64,000 nt of DNA, taken from assembly GCA_963665285.1 (NCBI GenBank), contig OY762266.1, positions 1,032,059 through 1,096,058 of the forward strand, written 5' to 3'. The notes beneath the pieces were generated by a model. It searched no databases, was not told the origin of the DNA, and was given only the letters and a program-made list of their open reading frames with translations. This document shows, one piece after another, positions 2,489 to 55,293 of this stretch (position 1 is its first letter; each line of letters starts with the position of its first letter). The position numbers were made by a program, and so were the translations under genes. This DNA comes from Candidatus Poribacteria bacterium (GTDB taxonomy: Bacteria > Poribacteria > WGA-4E > PCPOR2b).

Positions 2489-2992
2489 ATGATGAAACCG
2501 TTACACATTGCTAAAATCCTATTTTTAATTACATTACTGATTTCGATTGGGTTGGTTGGTTGTGGTGAAGAATACGACGACGATGACCACGATAACAATG
2601 AATATGACGACGATAATGACGATGATGAGTATGACGATGATGACGACGATAGGCGTGCTGCCAATGCTCTCGGCGTCGTATTTGATAATCCCGTAGATGC
2701 TGGCAGACCAAGTCCCTCGTTTAACGCCGATATCCTGCCTATCCTTACGAACCGATGTGCCTTTGCAGGATGCCATGTCGCTGGAGGACCAGACGGTATA
2801 GATCTCCGCACATATAACGCCGTGATTGCCGGAGGAAGAGATGACGATACTGTCATTGCCGGCGATGCGAGAGAGAGTGAACTAGTTGAAGTAATTATTG
2901 AGGGCGAGATGCCACCTGGTGGTCCACCTTTGCCAGCAGCTCAGATCCAACTCATCATTGATTGGATCAATGAAGGTGCTAAGAACAACTGA
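2489..2992 (+). CDS. Lipoprotein with an acidic Asp/Glu-rich linker and one PSCyt1-like (Planctomycete cytochrome c-like) domain, CAFAGCH motif
   Basis: ATG at 2489 follows AAGGAG; lipobox LVGCG; IxPILxxRCxxxxCH...MPP...IxxWIxxGA pattern matches the PSCyt1 family; TGA stop. Confidence 0.7.
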   Translation: MMKPLHIAKILFLITLLISIGLVGCGEEYDDDDHDNNEYDDDNDDDEYDDDDDDRRAANALGVVFDNPVDAGRPSPSFNADILPILTNRCAFAGCHVAGGPDGIDLRTYNAVIAGGRDDDTVIAGDARESELVEVIIEGEMPPGGPPLPAAQIQLIIDWINEGAKNN

Positions 2993-3239
2993 ACCCGATC
3001 AAATATGTAGGAGTTACGCACTTCAGCTTGCAGTATCGCAATTCAGTGGACGGATGTAAGGACCGCAGATCTGCGGTCCCTACGAAATCGTGGATCCACG
3101 GTTTGGTAATGTTTGAGGGCAACCACAAGGGTTGTCCCTACGAGGCTTTGAACGTTCAGCCGCGTAAGTCCTAATATGTTTCGTTTTCGTAGATCTTTTA
3201 CAGATAGAGTGGAAAATAGTTAATTGGAGGAAATAACTG

Positions 3240-5075
3240 ATGTCCACGAAATTAAAGAAATATCTAAGTATTACAATATGTCTGTTTTTTACAGTGATAG
3301 GTTGCGCAATCAAACACCAAGGCTCTAATCGTTTGGATAAAAATGAGGAGGGCGAGTCCCATAACTCCTCGACCTCCGATGTTGGCTTGGATCCCTCTGG
3401 CGATGAAAATCTAAAGAAAACCGGTAATACAGAAGGTCTTGAAAAGGATGGATTGAAGCAGCATAACTTCGGTGAAAATGGAACGACCGACTCTAGTCTA
3501 AGTGGCTCTAGCAATGGGGTGGTGATTTACCCAACAGCCCAAAAGCCGAGTTCCAACGTGTATAGCCAGAGAGCGCAACATCGCGACGACGACGATGATG
3601 ACGACGACCATGATGACGACGACCATGACGATGACCATGATGATGACGACGACCATGACGATGATGATGACGACGACCACGACGATGACCATGATGATGA
3701 TGATGACGACGATGATGACGACGATTACCATTATGGTAATGTGTTATTTGATGATCCTACAGATGCCGGTAGATCCAGTCCCTCTTTTCAGGATGATATT
3801 TTACCTATCCTTACAAACCGATGTGCCTTCGCAGGGTGCCATGTCGCCGGGGGACCGTACGGTATAGATCTCCGTACCTATAACGCCGTGATGGCAGGAG
3901 GCCATGATGGTGCTATTGTCATTGCAGGCAATGCGCGAAGGAGCGAACTAGTCGAACAAATTGTTGAGGGCGAAATGCCTCCTAGCGGTCCACCTTTGCC
4001 GGCAGCTCAGATCCAACTCATCATTGATTGGATTAATGAGGGAGCCAAGAATAACTCAAATAATGAAACGAATGTGGTATCTGATAATCCTACAGATGCT
4101 GGTAGACCAATTCCCTCTTTTCAGGACGATATTTTACCTATCCTTACGAACCGATGTGCCTTCGCAGGGTGCCATGTCGCCGGAGGACCGGGCGGTATAG
4201 ATCTCCGTACGTATGATGCCGTGATTGCCGGAGGCAGTAAGGGTGCTATCGTTATTGCAGGCGATGCGGGAGAGAGCGAACTGGTCAAACAGATCGTTGA
4301 GGGTACAATGCCCCCTGGCGGTCCACCTTTGCCGGCAGCTCAGATCCAACTCATCACTGATTGGATTAATGAGGGAGCCAAGAACAACTTGGACGGTGAA
4401 ACAGATCGCGAGCCTCCGATTCCTCCAGATTCGTTCCCATCCCCGGACGTTAATCGGGATGGAGTCGTGAATATCCTAGATCTGATACAGGCTGCCTTTC
4501 AATTCGGACAAGTTGGCCCCCATCTCGCCGGAGATGTCAATGGCAACGGGACCGTGGATGTGGCCGATTTGATACTTATCAGCGTGGGTTTGAGCGGAAA
4601 TGCTGCAGCACCTGCGCCACCTGTTGACGATTCAAGTCTAACTACCAACTATCATCCATCAAGTGTCAAGCGTCAATTCCAAGCCCTTGCAGCTCTGGAA
4701 TCACTGGCAACCCCCTCACGTGAGGTACATCTTGCCCGCGATATGCTCAAAGCGTGGTTAGCCCGCGTGAAGCTGTTGGTCACGGAAACGAAATTGCTGC
4801 CAAACTATCCCAACCCGTTCAATCCTGAAACGTGGATACCCTACCAGCTAGCAGAGACTGCCTATGTAAAAATTCACATTTATGATGTCGTTGGGAATCT
4901 GGTGAGGACGTTAGATCTGGGCACCAAACCTGTGGGCAATTATATGTCACGGGAACAAGCAGCATATTGGGATGGCCGCAATGACATGGGGGAAGGGGTC
5001 AGCAGTGGGGTGTATTTCTACACGCTGACGACAGGGGATTATCAGACAACGCGCCGGATGATCGTTGCGCGATAA
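3240..5075 (+). CDS. Secreted lipoprotein: ~60-residue poly-Asp/His tract, two PSCyt1-like domains (CX4CH), dockerin-like pair of Ca-binding loops, C-terminal T9SS sorting domain
   Basis: GGAGG RBS; lipobox VIGCA; DVNRDGVVNILDL and DVNGNGTVDVADL segments; C-terminus LLPNYPNPFNPETWIPY...GVYFYTL (Por_Secre_tail-type CTD). Confidence 0.8.
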   Translation: MSTKLKKYLSITICLFFTVIGCAIKHQGSNRLDKNEEGESHNSSTSDVGLDPSGDENLKKTGNTEGLEKDGLKQHNFGENGTTDSSLSGSSNGVVIYPTAQKPSSNVYSQRAQHRDDDDDDDDHDDDDHDDDHDDDDDHDDDDDDDHDDDHDDDDDDDDDDDYHYGNVLFDDPTDAGRSSPSFQDDILPILTNRCAFAGCHVAGGPYGIDLRTYNAVMAGGHDGAIVIAGNARRSELVEQIVEGEMPPSGPPLPAAQIQLIIDWINEGAKNNSNNETNVVSDNPTDAGRPIPSFQDDILPILTNRCAFAGCHVAGGPGGIDLRTYDAVIAGGSKGAIVIAGDAGESELVKQIVEGTMPPGGPPLPAAQIQLITDWINEGAKNNLDGETDREPPIPPDSFPSPDVNRDGVVNILDLIQAAFQFGQVGPHLAGDVNGNGTVDVADLILISVGLSGNAAAPAPPVDDSSLTTNYHPSSVKRQFQALAALESLATPSREVHLARDMLKAWLARVKLLVTETKLLPNYPNPFNPETWIPYQLAETAYVKIHIYDVVGNLVRTLDLGTKPVGNYMSREQAAYWDGRNDMGEGVSSGVYFYTLTTGDYQTTRRMIVAR

Positions 5076-5076
5076 A

Positions 5077-5239
5077 TTATGGTGAGTTAGACAAATAAGT
5101 GGACATTTGCCAAAGTCCCCTCTTTCCCCCTAATAAGGGCGCTAGGGGGTTACGGATTTAGGCGGTTGTTTGTAGGTACAGATTGCCTAATCTGTACATG
5201 GGCATTGGCAGTGTGTAAGTAATTCTAAAATCCACCATA
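5077..5239 (-). repeat. MITE-like non-coding repeat, copy 2 (inverted relative to the 40069-40209 copy); abuts the stop codon of the upstream gene
   Basis: About 150 bp with near-identity to 40069-40209, including the palindrome GTACAGATTAGGCAATCTGTAC and the CCCCCTAAATCC...GGGGGACTTTGG core; terminal ATGGTG / CACCAT ends. Confidence 0.5.
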
Positions 5240-11148: not shown

Positions 11149-12477
11149 ATGAAACGTTTCACATCGGTTCTAACCATTACCATCCTTTTCTTAGTGACGG
11201 GACTCTGTTTTGGCCACGGCGACCGGGAAGTCGCGGAAGACCAAGAGACAGTCAAATCCACAGGATTCTGGATTTACAACGATCTCAATCAAGGTTTCGC
11301 CGAAGCCCAAAAGACAGGTAAACCGTTACTCGTTGTCTTCCGCTGAGTGCCGTGAGTGAGCTGCAAAGGCTTCGACGAACAGGTTGTTCGTCACGATAAA
11401 AGAATTAGCGAATTGATGGAACAGTTCGTCCGTGTCCGAATTATTCAGGGCAATGGGATGGATTTATCGCTCTTCCAATTTGATTATGACCTAACATTCG
11501 CTGCGTTCTTCCTTAATGCCGACAGGACCATCTACGGACGCTTCGGCACACGGTCAAACTTTGAAAATGCGGCGAAAGACATCTCCCTCCAAGGATTCAG
11601 GAAAGCCCTCGAAGGCGCCCTCGAACTCCACAGAGATTACCCTGCAAACAAGGAATTGCTAGCAGGCAAAACCGGACCGGAACCACAGAAAAAAGTACCA
11701 GAAGCCTATCCGGCACTGCTGCGATATACCGCTCAACTAAATTTCAACGACCGTATAAATGCGCAGTGCATCCACTGCCATCAGGTCGGGCAAGCACAGC
11801 GAGAGGTCTACTGGTACGAACGGAAGCCGGTTCCCGATCACGTGCTGTATCCATTTCCACTGCCAAGCGTTTTGGGATTGACGTTTTCGCCCAATCATCC
11901 GGCGAAGATTCGCAACATCGCCCCTGGCTCATCGGCAGAGAAGGACGGTTTTCGTAGTGCCGATGAACTCCTGACCCTTAATGGCCAACCAATCCTCTCC
12001 ATTGCAGACATACAGTGGATTCTACACCGCGCCCCCTCGACAGGTTCACTGCCCGCGAAAATTAACCGACGTGGACAAGAGATCGATTTGAGAATCACAC
12101 TCAACGACGGATGGCGGCAGGGAAGCGATATCTCTTGGCGCACGACGACACAAGAGTTGCGCCTCGTCGCCCTCGGCGGCATGACCCTGCAGAATCTTTC
12201 TGAGGTTGACCGTCAGCGTAGAGGGATTAGTGAAACAGAGATGGGGCTGAGAGTTGGGAGTATCAATCGTGCTGGACGGCGCGGTGGACAGACCAATGCA
12301 GCCAAAGCAGGGATTCAACGGGGTGATGTCATTGTCGCATTCGGCGATCGAACGCAACGGCTAACGGAAAGTGGCATTATCGGTTATGTGCTTCAGGTAC
12401 GTCCGGAAGCGAAGGCACTGCCTATAGTCGTTTTGCGAGATGGCAAACAGATGGAGTTCCAACTGTCGTTGGAATAG
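11149..12477 (+). CDS. Periplasmic thioredoxin-like (Thioredoxin_7/DsbD-gamma-like) plus PDZ protein with two in-frame TGA codons (11344-11346, 11353-11355); candidate selenoprotein
   Basis: Signal peptide; GKPLLVVFR-TGA-VP-TGA-VSCK aligns with GKPVLVDFxAxWCxxCK of thioredoxin-like proteins, so the second TGA sits at the first Cys of the CxxC motif. The reading frame continues without any other interruption into a 373-aa ORF with a C-terminal PDZ domain. Confidence 0.5.
11374..11392 (+). promoter_or_regulatory. Hairpin GACGAAC-AGGTT-GTTCGTC 18 nt downstream of the second in-frame TGA; candidate bacterial SECIS element
   Basis: 7-bp perfect stem with a G-containing apical loop, at the distance range expected for bSECIS. 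Confidence 0.3.
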
Positions 12478-12549
12478 CTCATACCATAATTCGCCCTCGG
12501 ATAAAAAGATGCGGATAAGTTGCTAATAGCTCAAATCGAACACATAAAC

Positions 12550-12617
12550 TGCGTAATGAGTAATACGTCATACCTAAAGGACAGTCTTGCACATTACTCA
12601 TTGCGTATTATTTTTTT
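12550..12617 (+). terminator. Rho-independent terminator-like hairpin (about 15-bp stem, 26-nt loop) followed by TTATTTTTTT
   Basis: The inverted repeats AATGAGTAAT and ATTACTCATT, with extending pairs, lie between the thioredoxin/PDZ gene and the O-methyltransferase gene. Confidence 0.45.
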
Positions 12618-12637
12618 AGGTAAAACAGGAGAGATTT

Positions 12638-13318
12638 ATGGAACGTTTAGACGTGCTTCATCCATCAATTGACGAATACCTACTTGATGTTATTCCAGCG
12701 CGCGACGAGGTACTAACAGAGATGGAGGCATACGCACGGGAACGTCGTTTCCCGATTGTGGGCCCGCTCGTTGGTCGTGTGTTACACCAACTGGTACTGC
12801 TGACGAACCCAACGAGGATTTTCGAGATGGGATCCGGCTTTGGCTACTCGGCATATTGGATGGCAAAGGCGTTGCGTCAGCCGGAAGCGCGCATTATCTG
12901 CACCGACGGCTCGCAGGAGAACGCTGATCGTGCGGCGGGTTATCTTGGGCGAGGCGGAATTGCAAATCGTATCGACTATCGTGTGGGGAACGCACTCGAA
13001 ATCATCGAAGAAACCGAAGGGGAATTTGACATCATCTACAATGACATTGACAAAGATGGCTATCCCGACGCGTTTCGCAAGGCGATTCCACGGCTCAGGA
13101 GTGGTGGACTGTTTATCACGGACAACATGCTATGGCTGGGGCGTGTAGTCACATACGATACCGATGCTGACGTGCAAGAACTTGATGAAGAAGAGCAATG
13201 GGTGCACAATACCACAGTCGGGGTCAAAGAGTTGACATGGCTGCTTTACAGTTCCCCCGATGTGTTCACGACAATCATCCCGCTTCGTGATGGGGTATCA
13301 GTTGCAATAAAACGTTAA
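12638..13318 (+). CDS. Class I SAM-dependent O-methyltransferase (caffeoyl-CoA OMT-like)
   Basis: Motifs FEMGSGFGYS and D..Y.D.DK typical of the O-methyltransferase family 3 fold. Confidence 0.8.
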   Translation: MERLDVLHPSIDEYLLDVIPARDEVLTEMEAYARERRFPIVGPLVGRVLHQLVLLTNPTRIFEMGSGFGYSAYWMAKALRQPEARIICTDGSQENADRAAGYLGRGGIANRIDYRVGNALEIIEETEGEFDIIYNDIDKDGYPDAFRKAIPRLRSGGLFITDNMLWLGRVVTYDTDADVQELDEEEQWVHNTTVGVKELTWLLYSSPDVFTTIIPLRDGVSVAIKR

Positions 13319-25643: not shown

Positions 25644-26147
25644 AACTATCTGCTTTGATCTAATCTCGCTGTTAAGATCTGTCCCCAATTTTTGTCGGGG
25701 ATGTCGGTTGTGGACTAGGTGAGTAATTATAGCATGAGCGGGGGGCTCTGTAAACCAAAAACCTGCAAGCCCTGAGAGATCTCAATTTCGAAATACAGAC
25801 TCTACCGGGGAATGTCTTTCCAACGACAGCCACTCACAAAAAAACTTGACACACAATCCGATGTCATAGTAGTGTATCTACCCCTCCATCGTTGGGCGAT
25901 TTCTTGCCCGTGTGGACGTGTGCCAAATTGTGCAACTATTAATTTCAGATTCATTGTAACTTTGATAAATCTCGTAGGGGCATTGAGGACTCACGGTTTA
26001 GTAACTCTCGCAGACAAATTGAACTGGAGGTAACTCAGCACCCGTTTTCCCAAAACACATGACAAATTACACAACTACTTGATCGTAGAGGAGCCGACAT
26101 TTATGAGAGCGCAATTTTTCCGTTTCTGCTTCTTCCGATGCGACAAA

Positions 26148-27329
26148 ATGAGAAATGCAGTTTGGAACCCAAAATGCCTCATGTTACTGTTCTGTATCGT
26201 TTTATTGACTTATGGGACAGAAGGAATCAGCCACGGAGATGTCTGTGAAGCAGGCGACATTCTCGCACCCGGCGAAAGTTGTACCTACCCCGGCACCGAT
26301 GCCGAGTTTTCCGTCCTCGATAACGGGAACGGACAATTTCTGTTTTTTTCTTCCGGCAACAGCATTACTTTAAGAAATACAACGATCAATGGCGTGTCTT
26401 ATACCCTAGTTGCCAACAAGCTCGCCAGCGGTTCTTGGGAAATAGAGGAGATTGCAGACAGCACAGCACCCACAACAACAAACACCGCACCGACATTCAC
26501 CAACGGTGCCAGCACCACACGCTCTGTAGCGGAGAATACGGAGGCCAACGCAAACATAGGTAACGCAATCGCAGCAACAGACCCTGAGAACGACACCTTG
26601 ACATACACGCTCAGTGGCACCGATGCAGCCTCTTTTGACATCGAGTCAACTACAGGGCAGTTGAAAACCAAGTCCGCACTCGACTACGAAACCAAGTCCG
26701 CTTATACCGTAACAGTCACCGTCTCCGATGGTAGTCTGACTGACACCATAACTGTCACTATCAATATCACCGACATAGCTGAAACCTCTCCAGCAACGAC
26801 GACAGTAAACATCCCCGACTCCAATCTCCGTGCAAAAATTGAAACTGCACTTGGCAAAGGGTCAGGAGACCCAATCTCCTCAGCGGAGATGGAGACATTA
26901 ACCTCACTTAATGCACAAGATGCAAGTATCTCTACTTTGACCGGGCTTGAAACAGCAACCAATCTGACAATTCTAAAACTTGGCGACAATTCAGTATCGA
27001 ATCTCTCGCCGCTGACAGGGTTGACGAAACTGACGGAGTTACAAATTTGGGACAACTCGATATCGAATATATCCGCAGTCGCAGGATTAACACAACTGAC
27101 GCGCTTATATTTGTGGGGCAACACCATCTCGGATATATCTCACGTGGCAGGACTGACGAATTTGACACATCTGCGACTGGGTGAAAACTCAATATCAAAT
27201 ATATCAGCAGTGGCAGGATTGACTAACCTGATCCATCTAAATGTTAAAGAAAACGCAATATCAGATATTTCCGCAATAGCGAGATTGACTAACCTGACGG
27301 AACTAGGTTCTGTTGACATTTCATCGTAG
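26148..27329 (+). pseudogene. 5' fragment of a giant surface protein gene interrupted by IS5 (signal peptide, 2-Cys N-terminal domain, cadherin-like domain, leucine-rich repeats)
   Basis: The reading frame runs into the IS left end at 27306 and stops 23 nt inside it; LRR units L..L..L.L..N.ISNIS. Confidence 0.7.
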
Positions 27330-28113
27330 CCAGATAATGGCAGCGACAAAACTTAGAAATCCCATATACCGTGTAGCCAATTTATCAAACCGAGAGAAGA
27401 CACGGCGATAGTGCTTGATTTTGTTAATGAAACATTCGACCTGATGTCTCTCTTTATACAGATGTGCATCATAAGTGCGTGGTTCCCGACGGTTGGCACG
27501 AGGGGGTATCACTGGCACGGCACCCATGCAGGTTATCGACTCAACAAATGCCATAGCATCATACGATGTGTCGGCAATCACATACTCACTGCTGTAACCG
27601 TCAATTAACGCCTCGGCACAAGTGATGTCGTGCTGTTGCCCGGCACTTAGCCTAAAACGTAATGGGTTACCTAACCCATCAACAGCCACATGAATCTTGG
27701 TCGAGAATCCACCTCGACTGCGTCCGAGTGCCTGACAGGCTTGTCCACCACTGGTTTTCAAAGCACCCGCAGCACATGGGTGGGCACGAATGATGGTGGT
27801 ATCAATGATGAGCCACTCCATATCTGGGTCAGTGGCAAAGTGCTGGTGTAACCGTTGAAAGACCCCTTTATCGCACCACCTTGCAAAGCGTTTATAGACG
27901 CTATTCCAATTGCCGTAGGATTTTGGTAATAATCGCCATTGACTACCACTACGAGTTATCCAAAGTACCGCTTGGATAAAACGCTTTAGGTGTATTTCCT
28001 TCCCGGTGTAGATGTCGGGACAGGTTTTAAGGAATGAAACTATTTTTAACCATTGAGTATCGGGTAGGGTAAGGGTTGACATATCTATATTATTACACAA
28101 ATGTCAACACGCC
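27307..28113 (-). mobile_element. IS5-family insertion sequence (about 807 bp) with imperfect terminal inverted repeats (TGTTGACATTT core) and 4-bp CTAG target-site duplication
   Basis: CTAG at 27303-27306 and 28114-28117; the ends GTTCTGTTGACATTT and AAATGTCAACACGCC are inverted repeats. Confidence 0.8.
27321..28100 (-). CDS. IS5-family DDE transposase (apparently intact, 259 aa)
   Basis: Typical IS5/IS4 family sequence, e.g. ...FSTKIHVAVDGLGNP...; it fills the element. Confidence 0.9.
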   Translation of the reverse strand: MCNNIDMSTLTLPDTQWLKIVSFLKTCPDIYTGKEIHLKRFIQAVLWITRSGSQWRLLPKSYGNWNSVYKRFARWCDKGVFQRLHQHFATDPDMEWLIIDTTIIRAHPCAAGALKTSGGQACQALGRSRGGFSTKIHVAVDGLGNPLRFRLSAGQQHDITCAEALIDGYSSEYVIADTSYDAMAFVESITCMGAVPVIPPRANRREPRTYDAHLYKERHQVECFINKIKHYRRVFSRFDKLATRYMGFLSFVAAIIWLR

Positions 28114-28185
28114 CTAGTCATTGGAGATAACACCATCTCCAATATAACTCCGGTTACAAACCTAACCAAGCTGGTATGGCTAGAT

Positions 28186-31100
28186 ATGCCGAACAACAGC
28201 ATCACGGATATTTCCGCCGTAACGGGACTAACCAACCTTCTAGAACTATATTTTGAACAGAACTCAGTATCAGATCTCACCCCGTTGGTGACAAATACGG
28301 GATTGGGAACGAACGCAGAAATTGATGTGGGGGGAAATCCGTTGAATTATCCCTCTATCTATACCCACATTCCCGCGCTACAAGCAAGAGGTGCGTATGT
28401 AGAATTCGACAACCGAACGCCTACCGCACCTGTGAAAATATCAGGGGACAACCAAGCGGGCGATGCCGGTGCAACCCTTGCGCAGTCATTTGTCGTTGAA
28501 GTGCAGGATGGAGATAACGTCGCATTCGCAGGGGTGCCGGTGACATTTGCTGTGACTGCGGGTGGCGGCACACTGAGTGCAACAAGTACCACAACCGATG
28601 CGAATGGCAGGACACAGAGCATACTGACGCTCGGCAACACCGGGGGCACAAACACGGTTAGCGTAAGTGCACAGGGTGCCTCCCAGACAGCGACCTTCAC
28701 CGCCACGGCGACAACAACAAACGCCGCACCGACATTCACCGACGGTACTAGTACCACCCGCTCTGTAGCAGAGAATACCGCCACCGGTGCGAACATCGGT
28801 AGTGCAGTCGTAGCCACCGACGCAGACAACGATACCCTCGCCTATACGCTCGCCGGCACTGATGCGTCATCGTTCAGTATTGTCAGCAGCTCTGGGCAGT
28901 TACAAACACAGGCAGCACTAGATTATGAAACGAAGTCTTCTTATTCGATCACGGTCTCCGTCTCGGATGGGAATGGCGGCAGCGACAGCATCACCGTCAC
29001 GATTAATGTCACAGATGTCACCGAGCAACAGACCGGCATGACTACATACGAGGTTGGTGATGAGATTCCCGCACCAAGTGGGTTCAGTGCATCTCGTCTT
29101 TTAATCGGGGCTAGAACAGGTCTAACTGCAGATAATGGCACATATACCTGTGTCTCCGATAATAACTGTGTAATTCAAAACGGCCAAGTCGCACAAGGCT
29201 CGATTCAAGTTACAGCGATGGCAGCAAACTCCGCACCGGTCTTCACTGATGGAACCAGCACTACCCGCTCTGTAGCCGAGAATACTGCAGCCAACATGAA
29301 CATCGGCACTGCTATCGGTGCCACGGACACCGACAATGACACATTGACCTACACACTTACTGGCACCGATGCCGCATCGTTTGGTATTAATAGCAGTACT
29401 GGGCAGCTGCAAACCAAGTCCGCACTCGACTACGAGACTAAATCTACCTATACCGTAACAGTCACTGTTTCCGATAGTAGTCTCACTGACACCATCACCG
29501 TCACCATCAACATTACTGACGTAACCGAAACTCAAGTAAGTACGGCGGCTTGTCAAGTCGGAGATGTGCTTGCGCCCGGTGAGAGTTGCACCTACCCCGA
29601 TACCGATGCCACGTTCTCCGTGCTCGATAACGGACAAGCGCAATGGCACATCCCCGACTTACCCCCGTTGCTCCAGTGGATTAACCAAACAGCTATCAGC
29701 GGTTCACTGAGTATCTCCACAACTATCAATGGTGAGACATATCACTTCGTTGCCGAAGAACTCTCCAGCGGATCATGGGAAATCAAGGAGATTGGAGATA
29801 GTGGAACTCAGGAACCTGACCTACCCGTACAACCCCCAGTAACTGAGACCACCACCCCGACACTAAGTGTCTCAACCGCGAATCCACTCACAGAAGCAAC
29901 GCTCCATGAAGGAGTCGTAACGCTCACACTCAGCGACGGCACTTACGAACAGTCCAGCTTCAGGATCAGAAATGCCATAACAGTCTCCGGCATCAATGGT
30001 GTGACTAAGAGCACGTTCGGTGTAGATCGCGTCAGCGACACACAAGCTACCGTTGAACTGGAGTTCGACGGCAATATCAGCACAAATAGCACATTAACTA
30101 TCTCCGTGGGAGCGGGGGCTATAGCAGATTACGACGGGGATGCACTCACCGCACAACTAACCGTTACCGCTGTCACCGAGTCACTGGCAGCCTCGACCAC
30201 ATCTCCATTAACAGAGGCAACCTTGGATGAAAGCGTCGTAACACTCACACTGAGCGGCAGATCTTTTGAAGAATCCAGTTTCAGCATTAGAGATGGCGTG
30301 ACCGTATCCGGCATTGACGGTGTCACTGTAGGCACATTCGATGTAGATCGGGCAAGCGACACACAAGTGACGGTTGAACTGACATTCGATGGCACCAACT
30401 TTGACACGACCTCCTCACTAACCTTCACCGTAGGAGCGGATGCCATAGCAGGTTACGGCGGTCCTGCGCTCACCGCACAAGTGTCCGTCACCGCAGGCAC
30501 AGAATCATTTACGGCTTCAACCGCATCTCCGCTGGCGGAGACAACGCTGGATGGAAGTATTATTACACTCACACTCAGTGGCAGGACTTACGAACGATCC
30601 AGATTCACAATCAGAAATGCTATAACCATATCTGGTGTATCAGGCATTACTATCGGCACGTTTGGTGTAGATCGCGTCAGCGACACGCAAGTCACAGTTG
30701 AACTGATATTCAACGGCGACATCGACACCGATAGTACGCTAACATTCACCTTGGCGGCAAGCGCGATAGCTAACTACACCGGCTCCGCGTTCACCGCACA
30801 GCTACCGGTTACTGCGGGTACGGAATCATTGGTAGCCTCAACCGATGCACCATTAACAGAAGCAACACTGGACGAAAGCGTTGTAACACTCACACTGAGC
30901 GGTAGGACTTATGAACAATCCAGTTTCACAATTAGAGATGCTGTGACGGTTTCCGGCATCGACGGTGTCACCGTCGGCACATTCGATATAGATCGCGTCA
31001 GCGATTCACAGATAACCGTTGAATTGACATTCGCCGGGGACTTCGACACCGATGCCACGCTCACCTTCACCGTCGATGCAGGCGCAATCGCAGGTTATGG

Positions 31101-32397
31101 TGGCGATGCATTCACCGCACAGTTACCCGTTACCGCAGGTACGGAGTCATTGGTAGCCTCAACCGATACTCCATTAACGGAGGCAACCTTGCATGAAAGT
31201 GTGATAACACTGACACTGAGCGGTAGAGTTTATGAACAATCCAGTTTCAGCATCAGACGTGCCGTAACGGCATCTGGTATTGACGGTGTTACTGTCGGCA
31301 CGTTCGATGTAGACCGCGTCAGTGACACGGAAATTACCGTCGAACTTACATTCGATGGCACAGATTTCGACACCGATGCCACGCTCACCTTCACCGTCGA
31401 TGCAGGCGCAATCACAGGTTACGATGGGGCTGCATTCACTGCACAACTCCCCGTCACCGCAGGTACGGAGTCATTGGTAGCTTCAACCGATGCCCCTTTA
31501 ACAGAAGCAACCTTGCATGAAAGCATTGTAACTCTGACACTAAGCGGTAGAACTTATGAGCGGTCCAGCTTTAGAATTAGAGATGCCGTGATGCTATCCG
31601 GCATTGCCGGTGTCACGGTGGGCACGTTCGGTATAGACCGCGTCAACGATACGCAAGTGACGGTTGAACTTGAATTCGACGGAAACTTCCAAACCGACAC
31701 CCATCTCACCTTCAGCGTGCACGCAGAAGCGATAGCAGGCTACAACGGGCCCGCACTCACCGCACAAATACCCGTTACCGCGGGTCAAGAAGCGGATGCA
31801 AATAACGATGGCGTGATAGACATCCAAGACTTGGTATTGGTAGCATCAAATTACGGAAAAACAGGACAGAATGCCGCAGATGTCAACGGGGATGGTGTGG
31901 TAAATGTTGCCGATCTCCTCACGGTTACCGGCGCACTAGACAGTGCTGCATCCGCGCCTTCGGCACATCCACAGGCACTTGAGATGTTCACCGCAGCAGA
32001 TGTAAAACTGTGGCTTTCTCATGCACGGCAACTCGATCTCACAGACCCAATATCCCTAAAGGGCATACTCTTCTTAGAGCAACTCCTCGCAGCACTGCTC
32101 CCGAGAGAAACAGCACTATTACCAAACTACCCGAATCCGTTTAACCCGGAGACATGGATACCGTATCGGTTAGCGGAGGACGCCCTGGTAACGCTGACCA
32201 TCTATGACCAGAGCGGTCAAGTTATCCGCACGCTTGATGTTGGGTATCAGACTGCGGCGTTCTATGAGAGCCGCTCGAAAGCAATTTACTGGGATGGTCG
32301 TAACGAATTCGGTGAAGGGGTCGCAAGTGGAATTTACTTTTACAACCTAACGGCAGACAATTATTCCGCAACGCGGAAGATGCTTATTTTGAAGTAA
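28186..32397 (+). CDS. 3' portion of the IS-interrupted giant surface protein: LRR, Big-like, 2x cadherin-like, 2-Cys domain, about 8x ~100-aa tandem repeat, dockerin-like, T9SS C-terminal domain
   Basis: The frame is open from the IS right end (28118); an internal ATG at 28186 could allow independent expression; C-terminus LLPNYPNPFNPETWIPY. Confidence 0.8.
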   Translation: MPNNSITDISAVTGLTNLLELYFEQNSVSDLTPLVTNTGLGTNAEIDVGGNPLNYPSIYTHIPALQARGAYVEFDNRTPTAPVKISGDNQAGDAGATLAQSFVVEVQDGDNVAFAGVPVTFAVTAGGGTLSATSTTTDANGRTQSILTLGNTGGTNTVSVSAQGASQTATFTATATTTNAAPTFTDGTSTTRSVAENTATGANIGSAVVATDADNDTLAYTLAGTDASSFSIVSSSGQLQTQAALDYETKSSYSITVSVSDGNGGSDSITVTINVTDVTEQQTGMTTYEVGDEIPAPSGFSASRLLIGARTGLTADNGTYTCVSDNNCVIQNGQVAQGSIQVTAMAANSAPVFTDGTSTTRSVAENTAANMNIGTAIGATDTDNDTLTYTLTGTDAASFGINSSTGQLQTKSALDYETKSTYTVTVTVSDSSLTDTITVTINITDVTETQVSTAACQVGDVLAPGESCTYPDTDATFSVLDNGQAQWHIPDLPPLLQWINQTAISGSLSISTTINGETYHFVAEELSSGSWEIKEIGDSGTQEPDLPVQPPVTETTTPTLSVSTANPLTEATLHEGVVTLTLSDGTYEQSSFRIRNAITVSGINGVTKSTFGVDRVSDTQATVELEFDGNISTNSTLTISVGAGAIADYDGDALTAQLTVTAVTESLAASTTSPLTEATLDESVVTLTLSGRSFEESSFSIRDGVTVSGIDGVTVGTFDVDRASDTQVTVELTFDGTNFDTTSSLTFTVGADAIAGYGGPALTAQVSVTAGTESFTASTASPLAETTLDGSIITLTLSGRTYERSRFTIRNAITISGVSGITIGTFGVDRVSDTQVTVELIFNGDIDTDSTLTFTLAASAIANYTGSAFTAQLPVTAGTESLVASTDAPLTEATLDESVVTLTLSGRTYEQSSFTIRDAVTVSGIDGVTVGTFDIDRVSDSQITVELTFAGDFDTDATLTFTVDAGAIAGYGGDAFTAQLPVTAGTESLVASTDTPLTEATLHESVITLTLSGRVYEQSSFSIRRAVTASGIDGVTVGTFDVDRVSDTEITVELTFDGTDFDTDATLTFTVDAGAITGYDGAAFTAQLPVTAGTESLVASTDAPLTEATLHESIVTLTLSGRTYERSSFRIRDAVMLSGIAGVTVGTFGIDRVNDTQVTVELEFDGNFQTDTHLTFSVHAEAIAGYNGPALTAQIPVTAGQEADANNDGVIDIQDLVLVASNYGKTGQNAADVNGDGVVNVADLLTVTGALDSAASAPSAHPQALEMFTAADVKLWLSHARQLDLTDPISLKGILFLEQLLAALLPRETALLPNYPNPFNPETWIPYRLAEDALVTLTIYDQSGQVIRTLDVGYQTAAFYESRSKAIYWDGRNEFGEGVASGIYFYNLTADNYSATRKMLILK

Positions 32398-32478
32398 TGC
32401 TACCTCCATTCTTGTACCATTCCAGACCAGAACCCGATTGCATGTTGCAATCGAAAACTAGTGAAAAAGGAGTGTATT

Positions 32479-34656
32479 ATGAAAACACGAGTTGTGAATC
32501 GCACACATTTGATGCTTATCTTAGCTACCGTTTTGATAGTTCTTGGTATACAGGGACCTAGCTACGGGCAAACAATAACTGCATCGGTTCAGCAGTCGTT
32601 AACGGAGGCAAACCTGCATGGGAGCGTCGTTACACTCACACTCACAGGCAGCACTTACGAAAGTTCCTCTTTTAGAATCGAGCGCGCGGTGTCATTCTCC
32701 GGCATTGATGGTGTTACTGTTGCTACGTTCTTTGGCGTAGAGCGCGTAAGCGACACGGTAGTCACAATTGAACTTGAGTTTGATGGCAACATAGATGCTA
32801 ATGCCACTCTTACTTTCACCGTGGGGGCAGACGCAATATCAGGTTACAGTGGAAACGCGCTTACTGCGACTCTACCTGTTACAGCACTGCAGGAATCGCT
32901 TGATGCATCAACGGAGTCCCCCTTGACGGAGGCAACGCTTCACGGGAGCATCATCACATTCACACTCAGCGGTCGTCGGTTCGCCGATGAATGGGATATC
33001 GCAGACGCGGTATCAGTATCCGGTATTGACGGTGTCATTTTTGTATCGTGGGAGGTGGATCGCGTCAGCGACACAGAGGTGACCCTTGAGTTGATTTTCT
33101 TCGGAGACTTTGACACCGATGCCACCCTTACCTTTACCGTGGGAGCAGATGCAATTGCAGGTTACAATCAGGGATTCACCGCACAAATTCCTGTCACTGC
33201 ATTGGAGGAATCACTCGTCGCGTCAACGGATTTTTCCTTGACAGAGGCAACGCTAAATGGAAGCATCGTTACCCTCACCCTTAGCGGCAGGATTTATGAA
33301 GAGTATTCCTTCCAGATCGAAGACGCTTTGACGGTATCCGGCATTGACGGTGTCACTGTTGAAGAATACATCGGTGTGGAGCGTGTAAGCGACACAGAGG
33401 TGAGCGTTGCACTAACATTCGATGGGAACTTTGACACCGATGCAACCCTCACCTTTACTGTGGGCGCAGACGCAATCGCAGGTTACAATCAGGATTTTAC
33501 CGCAGAAATTCCCGTTACTGCGATAGAAAAATCAGATGCCACAGTGAGTATTTCACCAGCATCGGTAGTATCTCCTGATGTCGGAAAGGAGTTGACATTC
33601 AGCCTCAATATCACAGGCGGAGAAAACGTCGCAGGCTTTCAAGTGACGGTGTCGTTTGATTCCACTACGCTCCAACCTATCGTGTCGTTTGATTCCGAGG
33701 CCCGCAATGCGGCTGATTCCAACGTATTCCAAGTATCTTTTACCAACGGCGACTACCTGCCAGCAGGTGCATTTTTTGCGGACCCAATTGTCGTTGACGA
33801 CTGGCTAGGCGATACGTTCCTTGGGGAACCAATATGGTCTACGAAAGTGATACTCGCCGCAAACACACTCGCCGGGGCTGCCAACGGAGACGGTACACTT
33901 GCCACCCTCACATTCAAGGTTGGTGACTTTAAGCCATCCACGCTGACCCTATCCCAAGTCTACCTTGTAGATTCAGCTGGAAAGCGATGGGAAGCTACCA
34001 CTGAAAATGGGACAGTAACTATACCGCCAGCACCGGAAGAAGAAACTGTGGGGGATATCAACCGCGATGGTGTAGTGGACATCCTAGATTTGACAATCGT
34101 TAGTGTCCGTTTCGGTCAGAGGGGACAAAACAGTGCCGATCTCAACGACGATGGTCTTGTCGATATCGTCGACCTCGTCCTTGTTGCCAGCGCGTTTAGT
34201 GAGGAGGCAGAAGCCCCTTCCCTATATCCGCAGACATTGGAACTGCTCAACGCTGCGGACCTGCGCCTGTGGCTTACCCAAGCACAGCAACTGGCATTGA
34301 CAGATCCCACCCATCTGCGTGGCATTACCGTGTTAGAACAACTTCATGCAGCGTTAATCCCACAAGAGACCACCCTGTTGCCAAACTACCCGAATCCGTT
34401 CAATCCAGAGACGTGGATACCGTACCGGCTAGCGGGGGACGCATTCGTAACGCTGACTATCTATGACGGTAGCGGTCAGATTGTCCGTACACTTGATATT
34501 GGACATCAGATAGCTGGCTATTATACGGACCGAATGAAAGCAGCCTATTGGGATGGGAAAAACGAGTTTGGTGAAGGGGTGGCAAGTGGTGTATACTTCT
34601 ATCACCTGTCCGCAGGCGATTTTTCGGCCACACGGAAGATGTTAATTTTAAAATAG
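32479..34656 (+). CDS. Secreted repeat protein: 4x ~100-aa repeat, cohesin-like domain, dockerin-like, T9SS C-terminal domain
   Basis: AAGGAG RBS and signal peptide; cohesin-like beta-sandwich pattern (FQVTVSFDSTTLQ...DGTLATLTFKV); dockerin DINRDGVVDILDL...DLNDDGLVDIVDL; Por_Secre_tail-type CTD. Confidence 0.8.
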   Translation: MKTRVVNRTHLMLILATVLIVLGIQGPSYGQTITASVQQSLTEANLHGSVVTLTLTGSTYESSSFRIERAVSFSGIDGVTVATFFGVERVSDTVVTIELEFDGNIDANATLTFTVGADAISGYSGNALTATLPVTALQESLDASTESPLTEATLHGSIITFTLSGRRFADEWDIADAVSVSGIDGVIFVSWEVDRVSDTEVTLELIFFGDFDTDATLTFTVGADAIAGYNQGFTAQIPVTALEESLVASTDFSLTEATLNGSIVTLTLSGRIYEEYSFQIEDALTVSGIDGVTVEEYIGVERVSDTEVSVALTFDGNFDTDATLTFTVGADAIAGYNQDFTAEIPVTAIEKSDATVSISPASVVSPDVGKELTFSLNITGGENVAGFQVTVSFDSTTLQPIVSFDSEARNAADSNVFQVSFTNGDYLPAGAFFADPIVVDDWLGDTFLGEPIWSTKVILAANTLAGAANGDGTLATLTFKVGDFKPSTLTLSQVYLVDSAGKRWEATTENGTVTIPPAPEEETVGDINRDGVVDILDLTIVSVRFGQRGQNSADLNDDGLVDIVDLVLVASAFSEEAEAPSLYPQTLELLNAADLRLWLTQAQQLALTDPTHLRGITVLEQLHAALIPQETTLLPNYPNPFNPETWIPYRLAGDAFVTLTIYDGSGQIVRTLDIGHQIAGYYTDRMKAAYWDGKNEFGEGVASGVYFYHLSAGDFSATRKMLILK

Positions 34657-38753: not shown

Positions 38754-38834
38754 ATCCCACTAGGGTTGACAACTCTTGAGGGTAGGCGCGCTGCTTACCC
38801 TCAAGAAAAGGCTCTTCTCCGAGAAATTAAGCAG

Positions 38835-38867
38835 CCTGTAGGTCGAGATTCATATCTCGACGCCCAA
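38835..38867. repeat. Copy 1 (partial) of the structured repeat CCTGTAGGTCGAGATTCAYATCTCGACRCCCAA
   Basis: Shared 33-nt block with 55233-55293; contains the hairpin GTCGAGAT-tcat-ATCTCGAC. Confidence 0.4.
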
Positions 38868-38921
38868 ATGTCAACAGAACCTATATCGGAAAGGAATTGC
38901 TGAAAAAGGATAAAAGAAACC

Positions 38922-40068: not shown

Positions 40069-40209
40069 TATGGTAGATTATAGAATTACTTAGACACTGC
40101 CGATGCAGATGTACAGATTAGGCAATCTGTACCCACAAACAACCCCCTAAATCCCCCTTGTCAGGGGGACTTTGGAAAATGTCCACTTATTTGTCTAATT
40201 CACCATAAA
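40069..40209 (+). repeat. MITE-like non-coding repeat, copy 3, inserted immediately upstream of the start of lipoprotein paralog B
   Basis: Interrupts the otherwise conserved 5' leader shared with paralog A (compare 38170-38246 with 40010-40068). Confidence 0.5.
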
Positions 40210-55232: not shown

Positions 55233-55293
55233 CCTGTAGGTCGAGATTCACATCTCGACACCCAACCGTCGATTATGGAAAATCGACCTACAG
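55233..55293. repeat. Copy 2 (complete) of the structured repeat: outer stem CTGTAGGTCGA / TCGACCTACAG enclosing two internal hairpins
   Basis: Seen directly; the 5' 33 nt are shared with 38835-38867. Confidence 0.4.

Follow-up and report, generated by a model that had tools for sequence, protein, structure and literature searches.

An insertion sequence of the probable IS427 group splits a predicted leucine-rich repeat/cadherin surface-protein gene in a Candidatus Poribacteria genome

The stretch of DNA analysed here (the window; 64,000 nucleotides of contig OY762266.1, GenBank assembly GCA_963665285.1, positions 1,032,059 to 1,096,058 of the forward strand) contains a gene for a large predicted surface protein that is split by an insertion sequence (IS). 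The host is a sponge symbiont of the Candidatus Poribacteria, represented by a metagenome-assembled genome (MAG). The locus was reached through look-ups of the transposase and of the public gene call P0011, and lies on the 4.07-Mb contig ctg36568l of assembly ERZ25084387 in the European Nucleotide Archive (ENA). Exact look-ups of a neighbouring protein of 731 amino acids (aa), of a 1,403-aa fragment and of a 424-aa RibBA found no match; the public gene calls start at other codons. Upstream of the element lies the 5' fragment of the gene (26148-27329, + strand), delimited by the list of open reading frames (ORFs), Pfam matches and orthologs. It encodes a signal-peptide-like N-terminus (MRNAVWNPKCLMLLFCIVLLTYG), an N-terminal domain, one cadherin domain and internalin-like leucine-rich repeats (LRRs) of 22 aa, enters the IS for seven codons (GSVDISS) and then meets a stop. 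The IS itself spans 27306-28114, and its transposase gene is oriented antisense to the interrupted gene. The 3' fragment (28117-32397, + strand; 1,426 codons in frame, first ATG at 28186) continues with the last LRRs, a Big_1 domain, two cadherin domains, tandem repeats of ~107 aa, a dockerin/EF-hand-like segment and a C-terminal type A sorting domain of the type IX secretion system (T9SS), as seen in Pfam and TIGR04183 matches and in the repeat families D1-D6.

The word CTAG occupies 27303-27306 and again 28114-28117, exactly where an earlier reading of the letters of this stretch (the sequence-only reading) had placed it, and the 807 bases in between carry inverted-repeat ends. CTAG is depleted in the window, with 80 occurrences observed vs ~249 expected from base composition, and the arrangement is not a product of chance. 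When 27307-28117 is deleted, a single ORF of 1,835 codons results, its sole stop being the terminal one, and the junction reads ...ARLTNLTEL followed by VIGDNTISNITPV... Put in terms of the element, removal of the IS with one TA fuses 26079-27305 to 28115-32397, and the restored target sequence is identical whether a 2-bp TA or a 4-bp CTAG duplication is assumed. The LRR units, as located by DNA repeat analysis, start at intervals of 66, 66, 66, 66 and 877 nt. The last of these equals 66 + 811, so that taking out 811 nt regains the exact 66-nt period of the LRRs. The claim that the excised junction is in frame and in LRR register is borne out by both the 1,835-codon ORF and this period. To judge from the restored frame, the two fragments are one original gene that was split by the insertion sequence.

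Where does the restored protein begin? Besides ATG 26148, an ATG at 26103 (used in the public gene call P0011) and a TTG at 26079 are in frame. ATG 26148 precedes the signal-peptide-like segment, which was recognised as hydrophobic and signal-like by reading the sequence and which is conserved in orthologs, and it is the likely start. Counted from there, the restored protein has 1,812 aa, and its domains by Pfam agree with the earlier description of a split LRR/cadherin surface-protein gene.

The evidence that argues most strongly for a single-gene origin is a syntenic empty site in a related genome. Locus L004 (ENA ERZ25068966, a 281-kb contig) carries an 83%-identical gene (protein P0001) in which the site is unbroken (GAACTAGTCATTGG). 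Its DNA at the orthologous position reads GCAGAACTAGTCATTGGC, with a single CTAG, no insertion and an open frame, and the upstream gene order is the same as in the window (ribE, ribBA, ribH, two methylases, GATase and a histidine kinase). A second ortholog, P0006 on L095, is likewise continuous across the insertion position, and both P0001 and P0006 extend more than 200 residues past it.

The reconstructed protein has three cadherin domains in total and ends in a TIGR04183 domain at its extreme C-terminus (37 bits vs a cut-off of 23). This sorting domain, together with the signal-like N-terminus, would make it a T9SS type A cargo protein. Its 22-aa LRR units resemble those of Listeria-type internalins, with partial matches to internalin models; these reach ~100 bits vs family cut-offs of at least 1,050, and therefore the LRR architecture alone is in common. 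The product is best described as a putative secreted, T9SS-sorted, internalin-like LRR/cadherin/dockerin surface protein. Proteins with LRR, cadherin and Por-sorting domains have been described as typical of Poribacteria, a phylum rich in them, and the 'eukaryote-like' LRR/cadherin class is thought to mediate the interaction between sponge and symbiont (PMC3909097). The genes at 32461-34656 and at ~34.9-38.1 kb have the ~107-aa tandem repeats and the last ~100 codons, including the T9SS sorting domain, in common with the interrupted gene (families D1-D6 and D9). On these repeats the interrupted gene and its two neighbours are a cluster of predicted paralogous surface proteins.

The boundaries of the element follow from exact copies of 809 bp at 10 other sites in the same genome and from a comparison of flanks. 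Its terminal inverted repeats, delimited by end comparison and a core search, are 16 nt long, agree at 13 of 16 positions and have GG/CC tips. The repeat distal to the transposase start (GGTTCTGTTGACATTT; 27306-27321, + strand) overlaps the transposase stop codon, while the proximal one (28099-28114, - strand, read there as GGGCGTGTTGACATTT) contains a TTGACA hexamer facing inward. The 11-nt core of the repeats, TGTTGACATTT, occurs three times in the window vs 0.06 expected (none of 100 shuffles reached three); the element's own ends account for two of these, and the core is retained in relatives as distant as 60% amino-acid identity. The flanks of 83 copies were aligned on this core. The set consisted of the window copy, of L001 and L002, which exact look-ups of the protein had yielded, and of 80 related copies taken from genome assemblies. 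At the end near the transposase start the flank is YTA, and GG comes next without exception; the far end closes with an invariant CC, to which TAR is joined. The outer 4-mers are unequal in several copies (CTAG/CTAA in L001, TTAG/CTAG in L007 and CTAG/CTAA in L026), and since the outer bases differ between the two sides in such copies, TA alone is duplicated. The target in the window happened to be CTAG, and the terminal G and C of the element therefore recreate this word on both sides. By this comparison the true target duplication is the central TA of YTAR, placed here at 27304-27305 and 28115-28116 within the target CTAG and supported by the flanks of the 83 copies (YTA/GG...CC/TAR) and by all 11 copies in the host genome; the G of the left CTAG and the C of the right one are part of the element. 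The anatomy given in the sequence-only reading holds as regards the CTAG on both sides and the inverted ends, and is to be amended to an element of 809 bp, not 807, with a duplication of TA, not of the 4-bp CTAG.

Some related copies vary in length or in their choice of site. The distance between the inverted-repeat cores is 935 bp in L036 and L037 (OZ252032.1) and 1008 bp in L039, as compared with the standard 799 bp, so these copies carry internal insertions of 136-209 bp. Many related copies are centred in the palindromic word GCAAGTTG-CTAG-CAACTTGC (L005, L006, L008, L018, L024, L037 and other Poribacteria genomes), which suggests that this repeated palindromic sequence is a preferred target of the related elements. 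The same word was not found in this window.

The transposase gene (27321-28082, - strand) is a single ORF without frameshift that encodes 253 aa from ATG 28082, or 259 aa if translation begins at a TTG at 28100 inside the inverted repeat; the 259-aa ORF reported earlier, at 27321-28100, was confirmed as such. Public gene calls include both the 253-aa and the 259-aa form, the exact protein being recorded at other loci. ATG 28082 is the likely start and is favoured because the DUF4096 match begins a few residues downstream of it. The protein matches the Pfam families DUF4096 (71.9 bits) and DDE_Tnp_1 (54.5 bits), each above its cut-off, and the NCBIfam model NF033580 (transpos_IS5_3, 'IS5 family transposase') with 258.5 bits vs a cut-off of 110, over profile positions 4-258 of 258. 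In an alignment of eight sequences, the transposase and seven relatives at 61-87% identity, D94, D171, E216, Y209, R212 and K223 are invariant. Y209, R212, E216 and K223 form the Y-(2)-R-(3)-E-(6)-K signature, and the catalytic roles of D94, D171 and E216 were assigned from their motif contexts (IIDTT, ADTSYD and RHxVECFINKIK). As far as sequence tells, the transposase is intact, and the full-length NF033580 match and conserved catalytic residues agree with the earlier call of an intact IS5-family DDE transposase.

To which group does the element belong? The full-length match to a curated model, the DDE residues with their signature, and the inverted repeats with a target duplication are those of the IS5 family. 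Within the family, members of the IS427 group have a length of about 800-1000 bp (809 bp here) and a duplication of 2 bp, occasionally up to 4 (TA here); a further character of the group, two overlapping frameshifted ORFs, is absent here, where a single continuous 253-aa ORF is found. This does not disqualify the element, because ISPha1 of the same group is also single-ORF (PMC3281130). The Paracoccus elements of the group are 832-865 bp long with inverted repeats of 13-21 nt (PMC3281130, Table 2), 12 of the 13 elements listed have a 2-bp direct repeat, and most of the listed members have two frameshifted ORFs, ISPha1 having one (PMC3281130). The present element is thus like IS1248, ISPha1 and ISPpa2 of Paracoccus in its size class, its 2-bp duplication, its short imperfect inverted repeats (13 of 16 positions here; 12-18 of 13-21 there), its DDE transposase with an N-terminal DUF4096 region and its multiple copies in the host, and like ISPha1 in particular in its single-ORF arrangement. 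Unlike most members, which frameshift two ORFs, it has one uninterrupted ORF; its host phylum is Poribacteria, and its amino-acid identity to plasmid-borne relatives stays below 50% throughout. In a tblastn search of plasmids the best matches were labelled 'IS5 family transposase', with at most 49% amino-acid identity and 48 Paracoccus records among them, and these mostly align in two pieces, that is, they are frameshifted. IS5, the type of the IS5 group proper, is ~1.2 kb long and duplicates all 4 bp of its YTAR target. The present element shares with it the NCBIfam and Pfam family, the YTAR target word and the GG termini, and differs in being 809 bp long and in duplicating TA alone. The element is therefore best placed in the IS5 family and, by its anatomy, in the IS427 group.

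Look-ups of the 253-aa and 259-aa transposase forms located at least 10 further sites on contigs ctg36568l and ctg36534l (2.20 Mb). All ten further copies are identical to the window copy over 809 of 809 positions, which gives at least 11 copies in the genome, each flanked by TA within CTAG, CTAA or TTAG. Measured against the mutation rate, eleven sites with identical copies mean that the element transposed very recently. On this identity the burst is recent and the element is currently or very recently active, and the earlier view of a 'recent' insertion, which had been drawn from this one site, gains the support of the other copies. One identical copy (L094, 2987-3795; ctg36568l, 3.85 Mb) splits a gene for a type III-like N6/N4 DNA methylase whose 457 + 216 codons rejoin on removal. 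Two of the other copies in the genome lie near gene ends, and the remainder are intergenic. Other copies adjoin type I restriction-modification genes, for an S subunit (L092) and for HsdM (L090). About 9 kb from another copy in the host genome lies an OrfB_IS605 / Cas12f1-like TnpB gene (L001, 19802-20762).

The closest relatives of the IS (80-98% identity) are in Candidatus Poribacteria MAGs, and the same is true of the interrupted gene. Farther relatives of the IS (60-70%) come from Dehalococcoidia, Trueperaceae, Promineifilaceae and Desulfobacterales MAGs and from one uncultured proteobacterium, and have the same repeat core. A recent cross-phylum transfer of the IS was considered and is not supported, the relatives outside Poribacteria being 60-70% identical.

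The insertion leaves each fragment with one of the two predicted export signals. The 5' fragment keeps the predicted signal peptide without the sorting domain, and the 3' fragment keeps the sorting domain without a signal peptide. It had been proposed that the 3' fragment may still be expressed from ATG 28186. The follow-up lends this no support: a promoter and terminator scan of 25.6-28.6 kb found no promoter-like + strand site between the IS and ATG 28186, the number of promoter-like sites in the scanned region equals the shuffle expectation, and no purine-rich Shine-Dalgarno stretch lies upstream of ATG 28186. L003, a second public assembly record of the locus (from ENA), differs from the window at a single position in 21,227 bp, and this position falls in the 3' fragment. 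At 29686 (+ strand) the window has C where L003 has T (13584), changing CAA (Gln) to TAA (stop). CAA is ancestral, being common to L004 and L095, and a derived stop at this position is what would be expected of a fragment no longer under selection. The insertion would thus be a simple knockout, with a probable loss of function of both fragments.

Could the element have been put into the LRR gene by the assembler? A multi-copy repeat wrongly threaded into this gene is conceivable in that at least 11 identical copies of an element and a repetitive LRR region are error-prone for assemblers. A misjoin, though, would not leave TA duplicated while target, frame and 66-nt register continue exactly, and the same junctions stand in the second assembly record L003. 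Furthermore, every other copy has the same YTA/GG...CC/TAR architecture, and the contigs of 2-4 Mb, which are taken as long-read, should include single reads that span an 809-bp repeat. For practical purposes an assembly artefact appears excluded, the probability left to it being minute. Alternatively, the IS may have landed in the spacer between two naturally separate neighbouring genes. The public calls on L003 are indeed separate (408 aa, then 500 + 798 aa), and the gene calls for the closest orthologs are shorter as well (649 and 618 aa). Yet the break lies inside an LRR unit whose register and frame are regained on removal, and the upstream ORF ends solely by reading into the IS; P0001 and P0006 cross the site without a break, and among the top hits no ortholog has a stop and restart at that LRR position. 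A pair of separate genes is scarcely credible on these grounds. A different question concerns the limits of the element. An element of 807 bp that duplicates all 4 bp of CTAG, in the manner of the IS5 subgroup proper, would agree with the CTAG that literally stands on both sides here, and IS5 itself makes a 4-bp duplication of this kind. This is countered by the unequal 4-mers of L001, L007 and L026, by an inner base that is without exception G at one end and C at the opposite one, and by the duplication of TA alone in all 11 copies of the host genome; 809 bp with a single small transposase also fits the IS427 group, not the IS5 group of 1.0-1.5 kb (PMC3281130). The chance that the 4-bp model is right is very slight.

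It is also conceivable that the insertion is a reversible switch, by which insertion and precise excision would produce phase variation of a host-interaction surface protein. IS492 reportedly causes IS-mediated phase variation in eps of Pseudoalteromonas, and the present case is alike in that an IS lies in a gene for a surface structure and that exact removal would restore function. It differs in IS family and chemistry, and no excision or mixed alleles are in evidence here. The gene is perfectly whole once the element is taken out, the IS is evidently active, and the gene is of the LRR/cadherin class with a supposed role in the sponge-symbiont interaction (PMC3909097), all of which would suit a switch. 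On the other side, no empty-site allele of the strain was found in a collection of 5.8 billion proteins, where the best spanning hit reaches 83% identity and the hit at 100% is a truncated 408-aa fragment, and a degenerate 44-nt empty-site pattern, built from the window and L004 alleles, was not found in the metagenome contigs of the Joint Genome Institute (JGI). A 2-bp duplication should offer almost no substrate for slippage-type precise excision, and the derived stop downstream in one assembly fits decay. Most of the other copies lie between genes or in restriction-modification genes, and surface genes are not favoured. The statement in the sequence-only reading that precise excision restores the frame stands as sequence logic, without any sign that excision happens. 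There is a slim chance that the site works as a switch.

Several points weigh against a single, recently silenced gene. The full-length frame of 1,835 codons is attested in the reconstructed sequence alone, and the occupied site is known from assembled sequences; alleles within the population may be mixed. The L004 and L095 orthologs are colinear with the restored gene but change frame after Big_1, at different positions (in L004 within 11760-12960). These changes could be long-read indel error or real independent decay; indel error is a sufficient explanation, because the contig of L095 bears the label 3x coverage. An obvious Shine-Dalgarno stretch is missing from other good genes in this region too, and consensus scans for promoters and Shine-Dalgarno sites are weak in a phylum with uncharacterised expression signals. 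Lastly, the nonsense change at 29686 is one difference and could be a consensus error.

With these points taken into account, it is very probable that an IS427-group element recently inserted in a surface-protein gene and that the insertion is a simple knockout. On this reading, a currently or very recently active element of 809 bp, with a single 253-aa DDE transposase, transposed into a CTAG (YTAR) site in the LRR region of one large gene and duplicated the central TA of the target. The upstream fragment stops seven codons into the IS and has lost the C-terminal sorting domain, and the downstream fragment is left without a signal peptide, a recognisable promoter or a ribosome-binding site. 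For such an element cut-and-paste and replicative transposition are both possible; DDE chemistry and an ongoing burst are suggested by the residues and by the identical copies, respectively. A broader interpretation, in which a live IS burst hits host-interaction surface-protein and restriction-modification genes and in which the insertion is polymorphic or even reversible and leads to variable surface repertoires, is unlikely.

Other repeats in the window include a stretch of 127 bp in an intergenic region (~38756-38882). One of its ends is a perfect copy of the 16-nt IS end, AAATGTCAACAGAACC, followed by TA, and ~110 nt away it has a degenerate opposite end, CTA/GGGTTGACAAC. This stretch may be a remnant of the same IS, either a solo end or similar to a miniature inverted-repeat transposable element (MITE). 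No second full copy of it was present among ~0.6 Mb of related loci, where the inner hairpin alone recurs; in L016 (3779-3828), 50 nt of the stretch also border on a complete copy of the IS. A short repeat that contains a hairpin (...GTAGGTCGAGATTCATATCTCGAC...) lies at 38835-38868 and 55233-55265, and is also intergenic in several Poribacteria genomes (L006, L026, L027, L028, L067, L090 and L093). It looks like a repetitive extragenic palindromic (REP) element. Interspersed intergenic repeats of ~50-170 nt, 76-96% identical and with the palindrome CCCCCTnnnnAGGGGG, pair 5077-5239 with 40069-40208 (inverted) and 1730-1776 with 40134-40180, and recur in L001 (12120-12229), L092 and L093; these are probably a MITE or REP family. 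At 2554-3749, long runs of GAT, GAC and CAT codons form Asp/His-rich low-complexity coding repeats in two blocks ~1 kb apart (family D5). An Rfam scan of the whole window gave no family at the gathering score.

The insertion is a genuine, recent and ordinary event, and the sequence-only reading is right in its essentials. The element has recently been active, has no name of its own and belongs to a well-known IS group. In terms of annotation, what stands at 26.1-32.4 kb as three gene calls amounts to one pseudogene, of a predicted T9SS-sorted LRR/cadherin protein, and one IS, and the element merits an IS name with the boundaries 27306-28114 and a TA duplication. A high transposase load and surface proteins of this kind are already well known in sponge symbionts, and current understanding is unchanged. 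The locus provides a small, clean example of IS activity in Poribacteria, and of how an IS can eliminate 'eukaryote-like' surface proteins that supposedly mediate contact with the sponge.

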